Shown in pieces: positions 23,999-51,219 of a DNA stretch of 64,000 nt. Each line of letters starts with the position of its first letter. Position 1 is the first letter of the stretch. Source of the DNA: a virus (Duplodnaviria > Caudoviricetes); the IMG/VR virus record IMGVR_UViG_2887863138_000003, positions 9,185 through 73,184 of that record. One strand, written 5' to 3'. Position numbers and translations under genes: made by a program. Below the pieces are notes generated by a model. The model had not been told where the DNA came from. It saw nothing but the letters and a program-made list of their open reading frames with translations, and did no database searches.

Positions 23999-24493
23999 CG
24001 TTTAAATTCGAGGGGTATTCGATTAGACCCGAAGGTTTAAAACTTGTAAGAAAACGCTCGGAACCTGACGGTGAAGGATCGTACACCCGCCTTGGGGGTA
24101 TCCGTGAAATGCATAAACGTTGCATACGGTTGTAACCAAACGTACGTTTGAGTCCGATAATATATGATCCGTAAACACTTGTTCGCATACGTAAACCCCG
24201 TCACTATGCGATTTAATATGTTAACCATACGTTATAAGATTGACATAATCGGGTGTATATCAATATCTAGTACGAACACGGGTTGAATACGAATACATTT
24301 CGAAGAATAACCGTGAATACCGTATGCATCCGGGTTGAAGTTTTCGGAAGGGTCACGCGTGGAACGCTCGTGCGGATATTTTCGGGTTAGCATCACGGTT
24401 CAATCGGTACGCTTCGTTTCCGGTAGTCCCCGAGTTCCTTCTATATTATGACGCGGGTTAATGACGGGTAGGAACGTGTACCGATTTGTCCAT

Positions 24494-24685
24494 CTATCCG
24501 TCTCCCTTCCGTAGCCATAAAGCTATTGTGATAAGTAAGATTAGTCCGCCCAAACACGCCCAATAAGGTAGTGCGAATAGCACACTGATACCCCACGCTA
24601 GAAGTACGATTCCTACGAGTATTGCCATAAGAACTCCGAGTAACATTAACGCGATCTTAGCGTAGAAATTAGGTCCGAAGAGCAT
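24494..24685 (-). CDS. Small membrane protein
   Basis: 63 aa, two TM helices, GGAGG RBS. Confidence 0.65.
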   Translation of the reverse strand: MLFGPNFYAKIALMLLGVLMAILVGIVLLAWGISVLFALPYWACLGGLILLITIALWLRKGDG

Positions 24686-24712
24686 CGTGTATTACCGCCT
24701 CCTTTCCGTTAT

Positions 24713-24838
24713 TTATCTATATGGCCCGTTACGGAAGCTCCACAAGAACAGGCCGCCTACAAACGCTAAAGCTAACGCGCCTAATCCGACAGGTACTCCG
24801 ATAATCCACACGGCCCACATCGGTAAAGTAAACGTCAT
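24713..24838 (-). CDS. Small membrane peptide, 41 aa (not in ORF track)
   Basis: GAGGAGG RBS; MTFTLPMWAVWIIGVPVGLGALALAFVGGLFLWSFRNGPYR. Confidence 0.65.
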   Translation of the reverse strand: MTFTLPMWAVWIIGVPVGLGALALAFVGGLFLWSFRNGPYR

Positions 24839-25094
24839 ACACACGGCCTCCTCTCGTTAATAATTCGTACGTAAAGAGTACTGCTACGGCTCATTCGAGC
24901 CTCCGCCCTCAGCGGACAAGCCGCCTCGGTATCAATATCTTCTACCGCGTTGTAATTACTTCTATACTTTGTTCGCGATGAGAGATGATAGCGAGGCAAC
25001 TTGTTTGCCGAAGCTCGGCGTTAGCCGATTATATTTACGGGATAAGAAAGGGAAATCACGACAAACCGCGCCACTATGCGATTTTCGCTCTCGG

Positions 25095-25138
25095 ATATGT
25101 TACGCTGGCATAACATATATGTTACGGTAGCATAACAT
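25095..25138. repeat. Two tandem 22-bp palindromic repeats (iteron/operator-like)
   Basis: ATATGTTACGCTGGCATAACAT + ATATGTTACGGTAGCATAACAT, 22 bp downstream of the RepL-like stop. Confidence 0.8.
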
Positions 25139-25160
25139 ATTGTTTACGTAATCTAGGCGT

Positions 25161-25706
25161 CTAGGCGCTTTCCTCCTCGTCATTATCCACCGCCGCCTGT
25201 TCAAACAACTTCACCGCCGTAGCCAAAACACTCGTATCCCCACGGTAAATAAAATGCGGATTAAGCATGTAATACTTCTCGCGGCCGATCTTCGTACAGC
25301 CCAGCAATCGTTTGTCCCGCGAACACAGTCCGTCCAGTACGCGTGCAGCTCTTTGACGACTCCACCCCATTAGGTCAGCGACTCTATTAACGTTGAAATA
25401 AAACGATTGTTCGTCCTTTACGTATTGATCGTAGTCAAGAAATATCAGTATCGAAAATAGTAACGACTTCTCATCGTCAGTTAACCGTTTGTTGCGTACT
25501 AAGTCACGGTTGTTCGCGTGAAATACCATCGTGAAGTCGTGTGTTCTATCGAACTTCTTCGGCCTATATGATCGAACGCGCTGGCCGGGCGATACGTCCA
25601 CGAGCACCTTTTGTGGCTCGGTTGTTCCGTTGTGAAAGTGGCCCGATTCCACCACGTCAAGAATTTCGCCAGTTGTTACGTCCATAAACCTACCATTACT
25701 ACTCAT
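25161..25706 (-). CDS. RepL-like (Firmicute plasmid replication/maintenance) winged-helix protein
   Basis: D.TTGEI N-terminus, LT.DEK.LL..I...LDY, Y.LNP....RG; GGGGAG RBS before MSSNGR. Confidence 0.65.
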   Translation of the reverse strand: MSSNGRFMDVTTGEILDVVESGHFHNGTTEPQKVLVDVSPGQRVRSYRPKKFDRTHDFTMVFHANNRDLVRNKRLTDDEKSLLFSILIFLDYDQYVKDEQSFYFNVNRVADLMGWSRQRAARVLDGLCSRDKRLLGCTKIGREKYYMLNPHFIYRGDTSVLATAVKLFEQAAVDNDEEESA

Positions 25707-26276
25707 CCAATCGCTCCCCATTCTCTTTGTAGTTACGCTCCCGTAATGTAAACTTGCGGCCGATAGCGTGGAGCGTTACGCATTAAGAACGGTTCATGAC
25801 GCCGTTCCTCGACCGCATGTAGCGTACGTAAACTAAATAAAGCTCCCGACGGAAAGTACTCGTCAGAAGCTCTCGTTTAATTTACGTTTGAAATCATCAC
25901 TCTCGAAAACAATATGTACCTTGCGTCTTATTTCCCGTCTTTAACAATCGCGAATACCTTAACCCTCATCGTCTGTTTCCGATATCTTAATACGAAGGTC
26001 CTTTCCGTCTAATTCTCGCCACTGCGACTCCCGTAATTCTCGAATGTGGTCGGCGTATTTTTACCCAGAAAAGCGAACCCGAATTTATGACGGACTAAGC
26101 TACAAAACCCCATCAAGAAGGGAAGATTTGAGGTAAAAATATTCTAGTACTTATCTTTTCCATTTCCAATAATTGACTCAACCCCAATTAGCTGTTTAAA
26201 TAAAGGTACTACCCAATTGAACTTTTGGTGGGTAATTTTAGATTAAATCTTTTATAAATAAGAAAGGGTGTTTTTT

Positions 26277-27365
26277 TTGAAAAGATATTTTTTAATTTCA
26301 CTAACCTTGTCAAGTGTTATATGTAGTTCTTTCTTTTCTCCTAACGCAGTCGTCCATGCAAAGAACAGCGAATATGAGTTACATACTACAAAAAAAGATT
26401 TTGAAAGAGCTTTAAAAAAGAATGGTGTTGCCTTTATAGATACTGAACTAGTTCCACTGGAAACTATAGACAGTTATTATGATAGTGAAGATGAGGGAAC
26501 GAAGAAGTTACAATCTTTTAAATCAAATGAAAACCCTTCTTTACACGTTGATGAAAAGCCTACTTCTAAGATTGATTCGTACGGGTTAATTCAAGATGGA
26601 GATAAAGAAATACCTGTTTATATCATAAGTCCAATTGATACGGTAATGCCGAAAAATATGAATAAACAAGATATCATTGAAAAAGTAATTAAAGCTGCTT
26701 TAGATAATTATTATGCTAAAGAGAAGGAAGAGAAGACAGATAATCCCCCTAATAGTCTAGTTCCGTTTGCTATGGGAACCTATGAACCAAAAGCTTCCGC
26801 ACTTAAAGTAAATCATGCTTGGTCTACTAATGATTCTTATTGGTTAACTATGTATAGAGTATATGAAGCTCCACGTTCAGGTTCAAATGTTTATACATTT
26901 ATGCAAGCTGATCATGAGTATCTGGGCCCGACTAAAGGGAATAACAGAATTATACCATGGACATTTAAAACTCAATGGATAGCTAGATATGATGGATTGA
27001 TGCATAAACCACAGCCTCAGAGCATAAAAGGAGACAGTGACATGTCTATAGCTATTAATAAATATATTACTTTGTCAGCTGATTTCATTTCAGCTTTGAC
27101 ACTGAAACATGAGTTTTCCATGTCAACTAATCACGCTGTATGGACAATGTACCCCTATAATTTTGCTGCCTTCCGAAAAGGTTTTCAATTCTCACAAGGA
27201 GCATACATTGATAAAGGGGCTGATTGGAATTCTGTTAACCTCCAAGTATGGGATGAATTTTGGCTGACTCATAGTACTGGTTCAAATTCTGCTGACTTAC
27301 AACATAAATATAATGTGAAATATTTCTATAAAGACGACAGATTAAGACTTACGACTAAAGAATAA
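26277..27365 (+). CDS. Secreted moron protein of unknown function
   Basis: AT-rich, opposite to phage orientation; signal MKRYFLISLTLSSVICSSFFSPNAVVHA; aromatic-rich beta C-terminal domain. Confidence 0.8.
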   Translation: MKRYFLISLTLSSVICSSFFSPNAVVHAKNSEYELHTTKKDFERALKKNGVAFIDTELVPLETIDSYYDSEDEGTKKLQSFKSNENPSLHVDEKPTSKIDSYGLIQDGDKEIPVYIISPIDTVMPKNMNKQDIIEKVIKAALDNYYAKEKEEKTDNPPNSLVPFAMGTYEPKASALKVNHAWSTNDSYWLTMYRVYEAPRSGSNVYTFMQADHEYLGPTKGNNRIIPWTFKTQWIARYDGLMHKPQPQSIKGDSDMSIAINKYITLSADFISALTLKHEFSMSTNHAVWTMYPYNFAAFRKGFQFSQGAYIDKGADWNSVNLQVWDEFWLTHSTGSNSADLQHKYNVKYFYKDDRLRLTTKE

Positions 27366-27392
27366 ACCTTTATATTTTTCTGGAGGTAAATT

Positions 27393-27569
27393 TTGAAAAT
27401 ACTTATATTTGTACTATGTTTGATGATTTTTACTATTAATTCTTATCTTTATATTTTTGTGAGTAGTTTAGAAAGAAATCATCACTCCACAGAAACCCAA
27501 AGCATATTTTATTTAATTAATATCGTGCTTCTTTTCTTGGTTGTTCAGACAAATAAAAAATATAAGTAA
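27393..27569 (+). CDS. Small two-TM membrane protein, 58 aa (possible immunity partner; not in ORF track)
   Basis: GGAGG RBS, TTG start; MKILIFVLCLMIFTINSYLYIFVSS...FYLINIVLLFLVVQTNKKYK. Confidence 0.65.
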   Translation: MKILIFVLCLMIFTINSYLYIFVSSLERNHHSTETQSIFYLINIVLLFLVVQTNKKYK

Positions 27570-27620
27570 TAGTAAAGTTATATTTTGTGATCGTAAATTC
27601 TAGAATATCGAAATGACCTT

Positions 27621-27657
27621 AACTGACGACTAATGAATTTAGGCGTCAGTTTTTTAT
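27621..27657 (+). terminator. Moron terminator
   Basis: AACTGACG...CGTCAGTT stem followed by a T-run. Confidence 0.6.
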
Positions 27658-27790
27658 TCCATCATCCTACCACTTTCTGCATAGAGGCGGCCTGTTCCTC
27701 GTCAATTCCGAATATTCTAGCGCTCGTAGCCCAAAAGGTCGGATTACCAGCGCCAGCCACGTCCTCAGACGCGGTTGGTCTTTGATACGA

Positions 27791-27829
27791 TTAGTAACCG
27801 GGATTGTCCGTCCAATCTGGTTCCGTCAT
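27791..27829 (-). CDS. Micro-peptide 3, MTEPDWTDNPGY
   Basis: AAAGGAG RBS 10 nt upstream; 12 codons + TAA; third unit of a 58-bp-period array. Confidence 0.8.
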   Translation of the reverse strand: MTEPDWTDNPGY

Positions 27830-27848
27830 AAATAATACACTCCTTTGT

Positions 27849-27887
27849 TTAATAGCCGGGATCATCGGGCCATTCTGGATCAGTCAT
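27849..27887 (-). CDS. Micro-peptide 2, MTDPEWPDDPGY
   Basis: AAGGAGG RBS 9 nt upstream; 12 codons + TAA. Confidence 0.85.
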   Translation of the reverse strand: MTDPEWPDDPGY

Positions 27888-27906
27888 GTCGCGTAGCCTC
27901 CTTGTA

Positions 27907-27987
27907 CTAATGGCCGGGATTATCAACCCAGTTAGGGTCTGTGCAGCATTTCCACTCCGGAAAGCTCTCGAAAACTATCTTCATCAT
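27907..27987 (-). CDS. Micro-peptide 1, MMKIVFESFPEWKCCTDPNWVDNPGH
   Basis: AAGGAGGT RBS; C-terminal 11 aa match the same motif; stop 58 bp from the next unit's stop. Confidence 0.75.
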   Translation of the reverse strand: MMKIVFESFPEWKCCTDPNWVDNPGH

Positions 27988-28007
27988 ATCCACCTCCTTG
28001 CCTACAC

Positions 28008-28036
28008 TTTTCGACAAGAAGATTTCCGATTCCTTC
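28008..28036 (-). promoter_or_regulatory. sigmaH-like promoter upstream of the micro-peptide array
   Basis: Minus strand gAAGGAatc...gtcGAAA; AGGA to GAA spacing 18 nt fits the sigmaH consensus AGGA-N17/18-GAAT with one mismatch. Confidence 0.45.
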
Positions 28037-28069
28037 CAAATATACAAAAAGCCGCCGGTTTTCCGACGA

Positions 28070-28156
28070 CTAATTGCGATTTTTCACGGCTTGTACTAAC
28101 GCGGCGATCGAGATGACCAACGCTACCACCGCGATTACCAATGTAATAGTTTCCAC
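28070..28156 (-). CDS. Single-TM peptide, 28 aa (type I toxin-like)
   Basis: GGAGG RBS, GTG start; METITLVIAVVALVISIAALVQAVKNRN; followed by terminator GTCGTCGG-AAAA-CCGGCGGC-TTTTT. Confidence 0.7.
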   Translation of the reverse strand: METITLVIAVVALVISIAALVQAVKNRN

Positions 28157-28207
28157 GGTTCCAACGCCTCCGTTGACTATCGTACATAATCGAGGGTATG
28201 ATTGGAA

Positions 28208-28298
28208 TAAGATAATGGGGAGGGCAGGGACCCGTTAGGCTCCCATACCCGTCTGTTGACCGACCTCTTACGCCGCTAACGTAAGGGGTCTTTACTTT
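28208..28298 (+). ncRNA. Putative antisense antitoxin RNA (ends approximate)
   Basis: sigmaA promoter TTGACT (28173-78), 18 nt, TATGAT (28197-202); ends at hairpin GACCTCTTACG-CCGCTAA-CGTAAGGGGTC plus T-rich tail, convergent with the 34-aa peptide gene. Confidence 0.55.
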
Positions 28299-28396
28299 AG
28301 GTTCCGACCGTTGCTGTTTCGCCTGCCAATGCGGTAGTTGACTATCGCAGTTGCCAAGTTTACCAGCGCGGTCACCAGAAGCACGACCTCCACCAT
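28292..28396 (-). CDS. Single-TM peptide, 34 aa (type I toxin-like)
   Basis: AGAAGGAGG RBS; MVEVVLLVTALVNLATAIVNYRIGRRNSNGRNLK (TM plus basic tail). Confidence 0.75.
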   Translation of the reverse strand: MVEVVLLVTALVNLATAIVNYRIGRRNSNGRNLK

Positions 28397-28501
28397 TACC
28401 CGTCCTCCTTCTCATTTACTGGAAGGTATGGAAATCACACCCTCTACAAGAAGGATAACACGTTCCGTTAAACGTGACAATAACAAATGGAGTTGTTCGC
28501 G

Positions 28502-28714
28502 ATGAAAATACATATTAAACTAGCCGATCTACTCAAAGAACGTGGAATCTCGCAACGAGAACTCGCACGCCTGACGGGTATACGTGTCTCGTCAATCAAC
28601 GAAATGTGCAACAATGATACAGTACGACTACCACTCGATAACCTTGCGAAGATATGCCAAGTGCTTGGCGTTGAGATTACGGATGTGCTCGAACTTATAG
28701 ATGAACGTCTCTAG
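28502..28714 (+). CDS. XRE/Cro-C1-type HTH regulator
   Basis: L.DLLKERGISQRELARLTGIR.SSIN.MC.N...R..LD.L.KIC..L. Confidence 0.9.
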   Translation: MKIHIKLADLLKERGISQRELARLTGIRVSSINEMCNNDTVRLPLDNLAKICQVLGVEITDVLELIDERL

Positions 28715-28750
28715 CATGCATAGATACGAAATCCTCCGAAAGTAAACCCC

Positions 28751-29206
28751 TTACGCAATAAAATAGCTCTTGACTTCGCTCGCCTTTATGTCTTTCGCGT
28801 ACTGTTCTTGTCTCGCCTTATTGCGTATCTTAGCGTTGTTATCTACGAATTGCATTTCGTAAGGGCTGCGTCTTCTGCGCGAAGGTTTCCGGTAAGAGAT
28901 TCCGTCCGTCCCTGTATCCTCTACTATTTTAAGCGAGGTCTCACCGCCCATACCGGAACCTCGTCGCTTGTGTTTTCCGAGTGTTCGGCGGGCGTATTGT
29001 GTCGCAGATAGGATCGGATATTCGTGGTGGGTCATTTTATGCTCGTCGTTGTCCGTAAGCTCCTCGTGTAGGATCGCGTCTGTCAAGCGTTCAAGTTCGG
29101 CGGGCTTAGGTCGGTCACCAGTTTGTGAAATAAAATCGTCAATCCATGCGCTGATTGTTGCGATACGATCCATTCGTTCCATTCGGGTTAAAACTAACGT
29201 GTCCAT
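28751..29206 (-). CDS. Conserved phage hypothetical protein
   Basis: LERLTD.IL.EEL.D...HKM...EYPILS..Q..RR motif. Confidence 0.7.
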   Translation of the reverse strand: MDTLVLTRMERMDRIATISAWIDDFISQTGDRPKPAELERLTDAILHEELTDNDEHKMTHHEYPILSATQYARRTLGKHKRRGSGMGGETSLKIVEDTGTDGISYRKPSRRRRSPYEMQFVDNNAKIRNKARQEQYAKDIKASEVKSYFIA

Positions 29207-49748: not shown

Positions 49749-49892
49749 CTACCAACCTCCTCCAACTATTCTGGAAGTTACATATGCGACGCTCTCTTCT
49801 GATCCATTATCATAAGTAAACTGTTCTGCCTGTGTTGGCTGAGTAAATAAAACGGAGACAATTGCTACTAAAGTAACCATAAATGCTTTCAT
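49749..49892 (-). CDS. Secreted signalling propeptide (AimP/Phr-like), 47 aa (not in ORF track)
   Basis: MKAFMVTLVAIVSVLFTQPTQA-EQFTYDNGSEESVAYVTSRIVGGGW; ATG 1 nt after the receptor stop. Confidence 0.85.
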   Translation of the reverse strand: MKAFMVTLVAIVSVLFTQPTQAEQFTYDNGSEESVAYVTSRIVGGGW

Positions 49893-49893
49893 T

Positions 49894-51219
49894 CTAATTC
49901 GCCCCTTTTAAAATATTCAAATATCTATGTTCAACGTCCTCTCCTAAAATAGCCTTATGTTCGAAGAGGATCGCGGACATTTTTTGATATACGGAAATAT
50001 CTCTGAACTCTAGTGCTGTCTTAATGACCTCAAGAACATCGTTGAATGCTTCTTTATACTGCTCCATAGCTAGATAATACTGTAATCTAACAACTTGAAA
50101 ATTATAAAACTGACTCTTATTGTACTTATCCTTCTTTAATGCGACTGACTCAAAGATTGTGTTATATTTCTCTAAAAAAACACCAATTCTCTCTAGCTGT
50201 CCGTTTGAAAGTAATATCTTCAGCGCGTATGGAGCTACCGTAATAATTTCATGTTCGCGATTCTTATCTACAACCAGTCGGATAAACTCACTTACCGCTT
50301 CTAGCTTACCTTCCATTACTTCGATTAACTTTTCATTCGACAACGCCGCCCAACGGTAATAATCACCTAGGTTGTGGCATTCCCGGAGAAGTTCTGCCGC
50401 CTTTCTGAGTTCACCCATTCCTATTAAACTTGCTGCTTGGTAAAGAAGCGACTCCCCTAGATGTTTAATATCTTTGGCGTCCTTTGCCTCTTTGTAGTAC
50501 GCATCTGCTACAACAGAAAGTTCCTCCCACTCTTTGGTAACATTATACCAAGTAACGACACGATAGTATCCATCTAACTGTAGATTTACTGTTTCTGCAA
50601 CACCATTTTTTTGAATGGGATATTCTGTCGGCAGATCGTTCAATACTGCTCGTAATTTATGTAATGCTTCTACACCCTTCTTACGCATATCTCGATCGCG
50701 TTCAATCAAGAAAATTCGATGGCAGCAAATCGCATACCTTTCTGATATTTTCTTTTCGATGTTTGTAATTGCGTAATACACAGACGCGGCCTCTGCTAGA
50801 AAGCCGTAACCGAAAAGTGCCTCTGCCAAAGTTAAGGCGGTGGACATATCCTTTATATCTATTGTTTCCAAGAATAACTCGACTACTTTACTGCAATGAC
50901 TGACACCTTGCTTACAGTGAGAGCATGCCTTAATAAAGTCTGTTACTTTGGGAAGAGAAACTTTGGACGAGTCCTTGAAAAGCTCTCCATAAATCATTCC
51001 ATAAAAAAAATCGTCGTCTAGTCTGAACACGTGTGTCAATAAATCTACCTGGTCCATCGTAATCGCTTGCTTGTTCTTCATAATATAAGAAAGCGATTGG
51101 GGAGAGATATACAACAATTTAGCTAGGTCTCTTTGACTAAGATTATGTGAATGCATTTGGATTAGTATTTCTTCCCTTAATTTAAGACGATAATAAGTCA
51201 AGTCACTGGTGTCGATCAT
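49894..51219 (-). CDS. RRNPP-family HTH-TPR receptor (AimR-like)
   Basis: N-terminal XRE HTH (LSQRDLAKLLYISPQSLSYI) plus about 370 aa of helical repeats; followed by a propeptide gene. Confidence 0.8.
   Translation of the reverse strand: MIDTSDLTYYRLKLREEILIQMHSHNLSQRDLAKLLYISPQSLSYIMKNKQAITMDQVDLLTHVFRLDDDFFYGMIYGELFKDSSKVSLPKVTDFIKACSHCKQGVSHCSKVVELFLETIDIKDMSTALTLAEALFGYGFLAEAASVYYAITNIEKKISERYAICCHRIFLIERDRDMRKKGVEALHKLRAVLNDLPTEYPIQKNGVAETVNLQLDGYYRVVTWYNVTKEWEELSVVADAYYKEAKDAKDIKHLGESLLYQAASLIGMGELRKAAELLRECHNLGDYYRWAALSNEKLIEVMEGKLEAVSEFIRLVVDKNREHEIITVAPYALKILLSNGQLERIGVFLEKYNTIFESVALKKDKYNKSQFYNFQVVRLQYYLAMEQYKEAFNDVLEVIKTALEFRDISVYQKMSAILFEHKAILGEDVEHRYLNILKGAN

Follow-up and report, generated by a model that had tools for sequence, protein, structure and literature searches.

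What can a temperate phage gain from a row of three micro-genes, each behind its own ribosome-binding site (RBS), whose products carry no secretion signal and adjoin no receptor? The question is posed by positions 27791 to 28036 of the window, the 64,000-nucleotide stretch of DNA analysed here, which belongs to a 73-kb virus record with integrase, antirepressor, helicase and terminase genes (the terminase is 60% identical to that of phBC6A51). A preliminary description had proposed that the peptides mimic non-cognate RRNPP ligands of the host or of rival phages, and this proposal has gained direct sequence support: their motifs include the exact C-terminal tails of signal-peptide-bearing propeptides encoded beside HTH-TPR receptors. 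In the absence of any expression, translation or binding data, we consider it probable that the cassette is a receptor-less signal-spoofing operon of a Brevibacillus laterosporus temperate phage, which holds rivals lysogenic and shifts host quorum sensing. The anatomy of the cassette, the coding selection acting on it, the tail-specific exact match to foreign pheromones, and the lack of a leader and of an adjacent receptor can be read from the DNA itself.

All parts of the cassette lie on the minus strand. ORF1 (27907..27987) encodes 26 amino acids, or 25 from a second ATG with better RBS spacing than the first, and carries SFPEW, TDPNW and a C-terminal VDNPGH. ORF2 (27849..27887) and ORF3 (27791..27829) encode 12 residues each, the former with TDPEW and a C-terminal PDDPGY, the latter with TEPDW and a C-terminal TDNPGY. 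Their Shine-Dalgarno sequences occupy 27992..27999 (conserved among related arrays), 27896..27903 and 27840..27846, respectively, and a sigmaH-like promoter, GAAGGA-N15-GTCGAAA (AGGA-N18-GAAA), precedes ORF1 at 28009..28036. An intrinsic terminator (28050..28071) insulates the cassette from an upstream small hydrophobic ORF; every array but that of phage Emery keeps this terminator ahead of its promoter. The last ORF is followed by a hairpin-forming 3′ element (27700..27790; fold z = -2.17 for the spanning segment 27660-27800), which is common to several arrays including Emery's, is possibly a transcript end or stabiliser, and, like the rest of 24000-29000, has no match in Rfam. Rechecking of translations and coordinates found the three ORFs, their Shine-Dalgarno motifs, the stops 58 bp apart and the promoter-like site exactly as first described. 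The 58 bp holds as a stop spacing, made up of a 39-nt ORF and a 19-nt RBS spacer, but not as a DNA repeat period under selection, given that in relatives the spacers measure 16-22 nt and the ORFs 11-55 amino acids.

A sequence-agnostic detector of at least three chained, RBS-led micro-ORFs returned this chain as the only one in the 73-kb record and, in 1.73 Mb of redundant DNA, no chain lacking a [DN]PG motif, so the chain is not a product of chance. Overlapping ORFs of 76 (+) and 137 (-) amino acids were rejected as shadows, having no RBS and variable length. Searches of Pfam, PHROGs and NCBIfam yielded no informative match for ORF1 or for the small flanking ORFs.

The cassette sits between a late regulator region and the terminase, in an accessory neighbourhood of toxin-antitoxin-like ORFs, an XRE gene and a secreted-type protein. 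Two small hydrophobic ORFs of 28 and 34 amino acids (28070-28156 and 28292-28396, both minus) have no family match; between them lies a convergent sigmaA-like promoter with a terminator hairpin (28173-28290, plus; hairpin 28262-28290), and beside them the XRE gene (28487-28714, plus). This type I toxin-antitoxin-like cluster lies upstream of most arrays and is absent in Emery. Convergent with the array is a 365-aa secreted-type protein (26268-27365, plus), likewise without a family match, homologues of which flank remnant arrays in two genomes (G006 and G001). The phage's own HTH-TPR receptor (49894-51219, minus) lies about 22 kb away, next to its own secreted propeptide (49749-49892, minus), which ends in IVGGGW as originally noted.

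How widespread is this arrangement? The pattern search for homologous arrays that the preliminary description had proposed was run together with DNA searches, and yielded 11 further intact arrays: six in IMG/VR records, one in phage Emery, one in a prophage of each of the genomes G001 and G006, and two in partial remnants in G006. All 12, the window included, belong to temperate phages of the B. laterosporus group or their remnants. They comprise 3-9 ORFs of 11-55 amino acids, each with its own RBS at 16-22-nt Shine-Dalgarno spacers, behind one sigmaH-like promoter; the window array is the shortest of the family. B. laterosporus is inferred as the host of the window phage from the homologous arrays and flanking regions of strain MSSRFCCT15 and phage Emery. 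In Emery the 7-ORF array is unannotated, and only antisense ORFs are annotated there; these hypothetical genes, gp37 and gp38 (L011 6077-6546), are probably annotation artefacts. The Emery promoter-array unit sits elsewhere, after the lysis genes, and the unit therefore moves as a module. Across 61 family-level genomes, DNA and pattern searches found arrays in only four, all of the B. laterosporus group, with the proviso that arrays of other motifs in other hosts would escape such searches. No micro-ORF chains were seen in the parts searched of the related B. cereus phages phBC6A51 and PHBA67-T, one metagenome match was a decayed copy, and pattern matches in Proteobacteria and Actinomycete MAGs lacked RBS-led ORFs and were discarded as chance. 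In G006, a close relative of the window phage has its integration site immediately downstream of the putative spo0A (L248 4048-5100).

Homologues with broken frames had been named beforehand as grounds for refuting a coding role. Decayed copies do exist, with stops and motif-breaking changes, but only stranded in chromosomal remnants (the folE-mtrB locus and another next to a receptor pseudogene), a pattern that selection operating in active phages would produce. The remnant between folE and mtrB holds an array in four strains, with 9 intact ORFs in G006 and decay in the others; its array is possibly a case of host domestication. In a second type of chromosomal remnant, found at four loci, array ORFs are fused to about 50 amino acids, and in genomes G005 and G004 this remnant lies directly upstream of a DPG-class receptor pseudogene, an arrangement that could bear on the origin of the arrays. 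Two array ORFs are frameshift fusions.

When would the operon be expressed? Of 14 arrays, 13 keep the AGGA and TCGAA boxes, with a variable spacer in between; the exception, L170, has lost its -10 box. The layout is that found upstream of the host's putative spo0A, a gene identified by synteny, and the cassette promoter is the best such match in the 73-kb record. The boxes are thus present and conserved as first reported; the assignment to sigmaH rests on this conservation and on a consensus that we take to be RnAGGA/RnnGAAT, and the function of the site is inferred. The proposed analogy with phr genes does not extend to the host propeptide genes, upstream of which sigmaH-like sites showed no enrichment (5/56 vs 10/153).

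Whose signals, then, are being copied? A DPG pattern search of the host genome revealed propeptides with a signal peptide directly downstream of HTH proteins of about 430 amino acids, in pairs ending VVDPGH, DYDPGY, VVDPGY and AYDPGY; pairs of this class occur on chromosomes and plasmids. Homology searches with the host receptors, blind to the peptide, assembled about 55 propeptides from six genomes, among them a second class with the tails SFPEW, TEPDW, TAPDW, AEPDW and TEPEW. Searches for propeptides ending in PxW outside the known receptors gave chance matches only. Two of the host pairs, DYDPGY and VVDPGY, are listed under RRNPP_detector subfamily 08 (Paenibacillaceae) in the supplement of PMC10075063, the match being made by cleavage site and coordinates; one listed pair lies within an NRPS/T1PKS region. 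The pairs with SFPEW, TEPDW, TEPEW or TAPDW tails are carried by prophages, in two cases next to an integrase, or by a 60-kb contig; there the receptor gene is followed by the propeptide, a 42-74-aa ORF, an opposed HTH repressor gene and a divergent cro-like gene. This order matches the extended form of arbitrium, where lysis requires an antirepressor that AimR activates (10.1101/2025.11.23.689978), and from it we infer that the prophage receptors act like AimR. The full layout is present at five loci (L117, L118, L126, L164, L165) and in Emery gp60-gp65, whose propeptide ends in HGGIGW; at L125 the receptor, propeptide, small ORF and opposed HTH gene were seen. AEPDW is represented by a single pair, chromosomal and broken (L156).

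Structural models show HTH-TPR receptors and do not establish AimR homology. An AlphaFold model of a host DPG receptor (pLDDT 90.7) shows an HTH domain and a TPR superhelix, with NprR-NprX (Z 19.1, rmsd 6.6, 276 aligned) and Rap-CSF (Z 18.6) among the top VIA-align matches, tied with generic TPR proteins. A model of the TEPDW receptor has the same two parts and matches RapI (Z 18.9) and NprR (Z 17.7), generic TPRs scoring higher and AimR not being among the matches shown; a sequence search with this receptor gave no match beyond the HTH. The presumed targets are HTH-TPR transcription factors, of subfamily 08 and of the arbitrium-like modules, rather than Rap phosphatases, and the target pheromones themselves are only predicted. 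Several propeptides contain internal duplications or double motifs (HGGIGW, VGEHG or DAGERP twice; PDWDDPGW), the last, from genome G003 (L094), showing the same PxW-then-DPG overlap as the phage array peptides. AgrB-family genes lie beside arbitrium-like modules in several elements (L118, L125 and L250, the last being Emery gp53-56), which suggests that these phages have another communication system, based on cyclic peptides.

Comparison of the array peptides with the C-termini of host propeptides, as had been advised at the outset, produced exact matches. In ORF1, SFPEW is the exact tail of a prophage pheromone (L057/L118), TDPNW resembles TEPDW, and VDNPGH is DPG-class-like. In ORF2, TDPEW resembles TEPEW (L165), and DDPGY is the exact tail of the plasmid pheromone HDDPGY (L151). 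In ORF3, TEPDW is the exact tail of another prophage pheromone (L056/L117/L164), and TDNPGY is again DPG-class-like. The peptides are not three variants of one motif, as initially read; each is polyvalent, with 2-3 different tails per ORF. The window alone thus has three exact tails, a number reached in none of 100,000 shuffles, its DNPG[HY] tails and TDP[NE]W being near rather than exact matches. Across the arrays, exact copies were found of 18 of the 28 five-residue tails (mean 0.2 and max 3 in shuffles) and of 10 of the 36 six-residue ones (mean 0.01, max 1; 5,000 shuffles each), and an exact tail is present in 54 of 60 distinct array peptides; not one of 1,380 internal propeptide 5-mers occurs in the arrays. 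Both the arbitrium-like tails of other prophages (SFPEW, TEPDW, TEPEW, TAPDW, GGIGW) and host chromosomal or plasmid RRNPP tails (xxDPG[HYF], DNPQG, DDAGH) are copied, with 1-4 motifs per ORF. The tails resemble one another, so these counts are not independent, and the DPG-class match is partly circular in that the first host loci were found by the DPG pattern. This circularity does not touch the PxW and GGIGW classes, the PxW tails having been found by receptor homology blind to the motif.

Does a phage leave its own signal out? None of the nine arrays whose phage signal is known contains that phage's tail: IVGGGW is absent from every array, and GGIGW, which closes 8 other arrays, is missing from Emery's. 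This avoidance is suggestive only: no array at all has VGGGW or VGEHG, and three arrays besides Emery's likewise lack GGIGW. Some recurrent motifs have no known owner (NGSGW, AGPRW, QRNCNT, TESDW, YDINW) and may point to pheromones yet to be discovered; of these, NGSGW occurs in Emery, L001 and L004 but in none of the six arrays of IVGGGW phages.

A mechanism can be proposed in which expression from the sigmaH-like promoter in the lysogen, cytoplasmic action and agonism are all inferred. As the lysogen enters stationary phase or sporulation, sigmaH would turn the operon on, and the peptides would build up in the cytoplasm, needing no Sec export, extracellular maturation or Opp re-import. RRNPP pockets usually take peptides of 5-10 residues. 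Tails of the DPG type, C-terminal in 57 of 65 cases, and GGIGW, C-terminal in 8 of 8, could then bind foreign TPR receptors directly; for these free C-termini the idea of ready-made ligands stands. It does not stand for the PxW and PQG motifs, which are C-terminal in none of 42 cases, and since PxW is always internal, it would need processing. A single cut after a shared Trp might free both a PxW pheromone and the following hexapeptide, because 50 of 68 array ORFs end in Trp plus exactly six residues, with Trp where host propeptides mostly have Tyr (Trp at position -7 in 48 of 58 array peptides; Tyr in 25 and Asn in 10 of 45 host propeptides). The protease is unknown, and no protease gene was found nearby in the cassette region. 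Internal pheromones of phage Phr propeptides are known to be released and active, by way of extracellular enzymes (PMC11343458). If AimP-AimR is a guide, the receptors of co-resident or incoming phages would, once occupied by ligand, stop activating their antirepressors, so that rivals stay or become lysogenic and the carrier cell is not lysed; in Bacillus, non-cognate peptides do force rivals into lysogeny, cut induction and benefit the emitter or resident prophage (PMC13220667; 10.1101/2025.10.13.681967). Host DPG-class regulons would be pushed to a high-density state, to unknown benefit, and shuffling of modules and ORFs would let each phage track the local signal repertoire with its own signal left out. 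We lean, with less assurance than for spoofing as such, toward regarding the arrays as a dedicated and evolvable library of counterfeit signals, leaderless polyvalent peptides deployed at sporulation entry that freeze competitors and steer the host.

Alternatively, the peptides might leave the cell, by LCP-like non-Sec export or by lysis, to be trimmed outside and imported by neighbours, jamming rivals and host across the population. Leaderless RRNPP peptides can indeed be exported and re-imported (PMC10518010), and extracellular proteases of the kind that free internal pheromones from tandem propeptides (PMC11343458) would solve the problem of the internal PxW. However, neither an exporter nor a cognate receptor is adjacent, and the cheap route out, a Sec leader, is absent in 68 of 68 array ORFs, whose acidic peptides are unlike a leader. 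The absence of a signal peptide, asserted from the start, is borne out by hydropathy (8-residue window), which peaks at 1.0, -1.7 and -1.6 in the window peptides vs at least 2.3 in all real propeptides. We regard such a broadcast as unlikely.

It is also conceivable that the peptides are antagonists or decoys, extended or altered tails that fill receptors without switching them or titrate a processing peptidase, leaving the sensors of host and rivals blinded instead of activated. Many near-misses (DNPGH, TDPNW, DPRG), C-terminal extensions and the Trp in place of Tyr or Asn at -7 speak for this, and the near-match tails DNPG[HY] and TDP[NE]W could act as antagonists. Yet many tails are copied exactly over five and six residues with free C-termini, and blocking an arbitrium-like receptor would favour lysis by the rival, harming the resident prophage; antagonism appears improbable.

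A role outside RRNPP signalling, as anti-defence inhibitors or as RiPP precursors modified in trans, would make the likeness to pheromones a matter of descent or composition. Small phage proteins often inhibit defence, and the cassette does lie in an accessory region beside toxin-antitoxin-like genes. Against this, several unrelated tail classes are matched exactly and only as tails; no leader-core layout was found in the cassette, and no modifying enzyme near the window or any relative inspected, which does not exclude modification in trans. We find this reading very hard to sustain.

The initial suggestion that selection acts on the peptides and not on the DNA repeat is upheld by the additional evidence. 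Pooled pN/pS comes to 0.26 among the window units and 0.42 among all 12-aa units, with 0.23-0.27 over the last five codons; these values come from non-independent and partly saturated pairs. Between orthologues of ORF1, modules of 18-39 nt, multiples of 3, are inserted or deleted in frame, and the spacers diverge freely. The matched motifs use codons unlike those of their targets (e.g., Ser AGC vs TCT in SFPEW), and the resemblance is therefore held at the peptide level; recent DNA capture from propeptide genes was rejected on the same codon differences and on flanks without identity. The micro-ORFs are very probably translated. Repeated AGGAGG motifs and the decayed copies notwithstanding, a non-coding repeat, whether a GGA-rich sponge for protein or ribosomes or a neutral tandem duplication, is scarcely tenable in the face of synonymous divergence far above non-synonymous, frame-preserving indels, free spacer divergence and the lack of any Rfam match.

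Taking spoofing, broadcast and antagonism together, we are highly confident of mimicry in some form. That phages manipulate the arbitrium of others is a recent finding, limited to cross-talk between cognate signals; the cassette would be the first device devoted to dishonest signalling, and its targets would be several rival phages and the host at the same time. If this holds, signal spoofing is a class of its own in warfare between phages, and from the arrays one could read the mature pheromone code of an entire species, with signals that have yet to be discovered (motifs such as NGSGW, AGPRW and QRNCNT). The arrays would also predict, for about 30 uncharacterised pheromones of Brevibacillus, what the mature form is; some of these lie in NRPS/PKS regions of a biocontrol species. 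Whether cheating in viral and bacterial peptide communication is selected for becomes directly testable with synthetic peptides, the isolated phage Emery and named receptors. The array genes themselves are a class wholly missed by annotation.

How does the cassette compare with known systems? Close to it is the LCP class, SIP-RopB of Streptococcus pyogenes and relatives (PMC10518010), which shares the ultra-small RBS-led ORF without a secretion signal, the predicted cytosolic RRNPP ligand and the escape from annotation; an LCP, however, is one peptide beside its cognate RopB-clan receptor, whereas the cassette family has 3-9 ORFs and foreign signals, and none of its intact arrays adjoins a receptor gene. 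In arbitrium cross-talk a non-cognate peptide likewise acts on another phage's lysis-lysogeny receptor to the gain of the resident prophage (PMC13220667; 10.1101/2025.10.13.681967), but there it is the phage's own secreted AimP, its similarity a by-product, and here separate leaderless copies of several foreign and host signals. The tandem Phr propeptides of phi3T and phi105 (PMC11343458) also carry several pheromone motifs per chain, freed by proteolysis; unlike the cassette, they have a Sec signal, lie beside and serve a cognate Rap, and repeat variants of one signal. Measured against RRNPP propeptides (Phr/AimP/PapR/AloP), the cassette has the pheromone-like tail of 5-7 residues and lacks both the Sec signal and the adjacent cognate receptor. 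RRNPP_detector subfamily 08 and the Alo systems (PMC10075063; PMC7425212), with receptor and secreted propeptide, are the presumed targets and not the cassette. Aqs1 of DMS3 (reviewed in PMC13389391) is also a phage product aimed at a host quorum-sensing receptor, but it is a small protein that binds LasR, copies no signal and has no role against the signalling of rival phages. Targeted term searches of PMC10075063 did not find leaderless mimic arrays, and no description of such arrays was found in the literature searched, most subscription journals lying outside its scope. With its function untested, the cassette stands as new as a system, outside the LCP and arbitrium cross-talk classes and distinct from tandem Phr.
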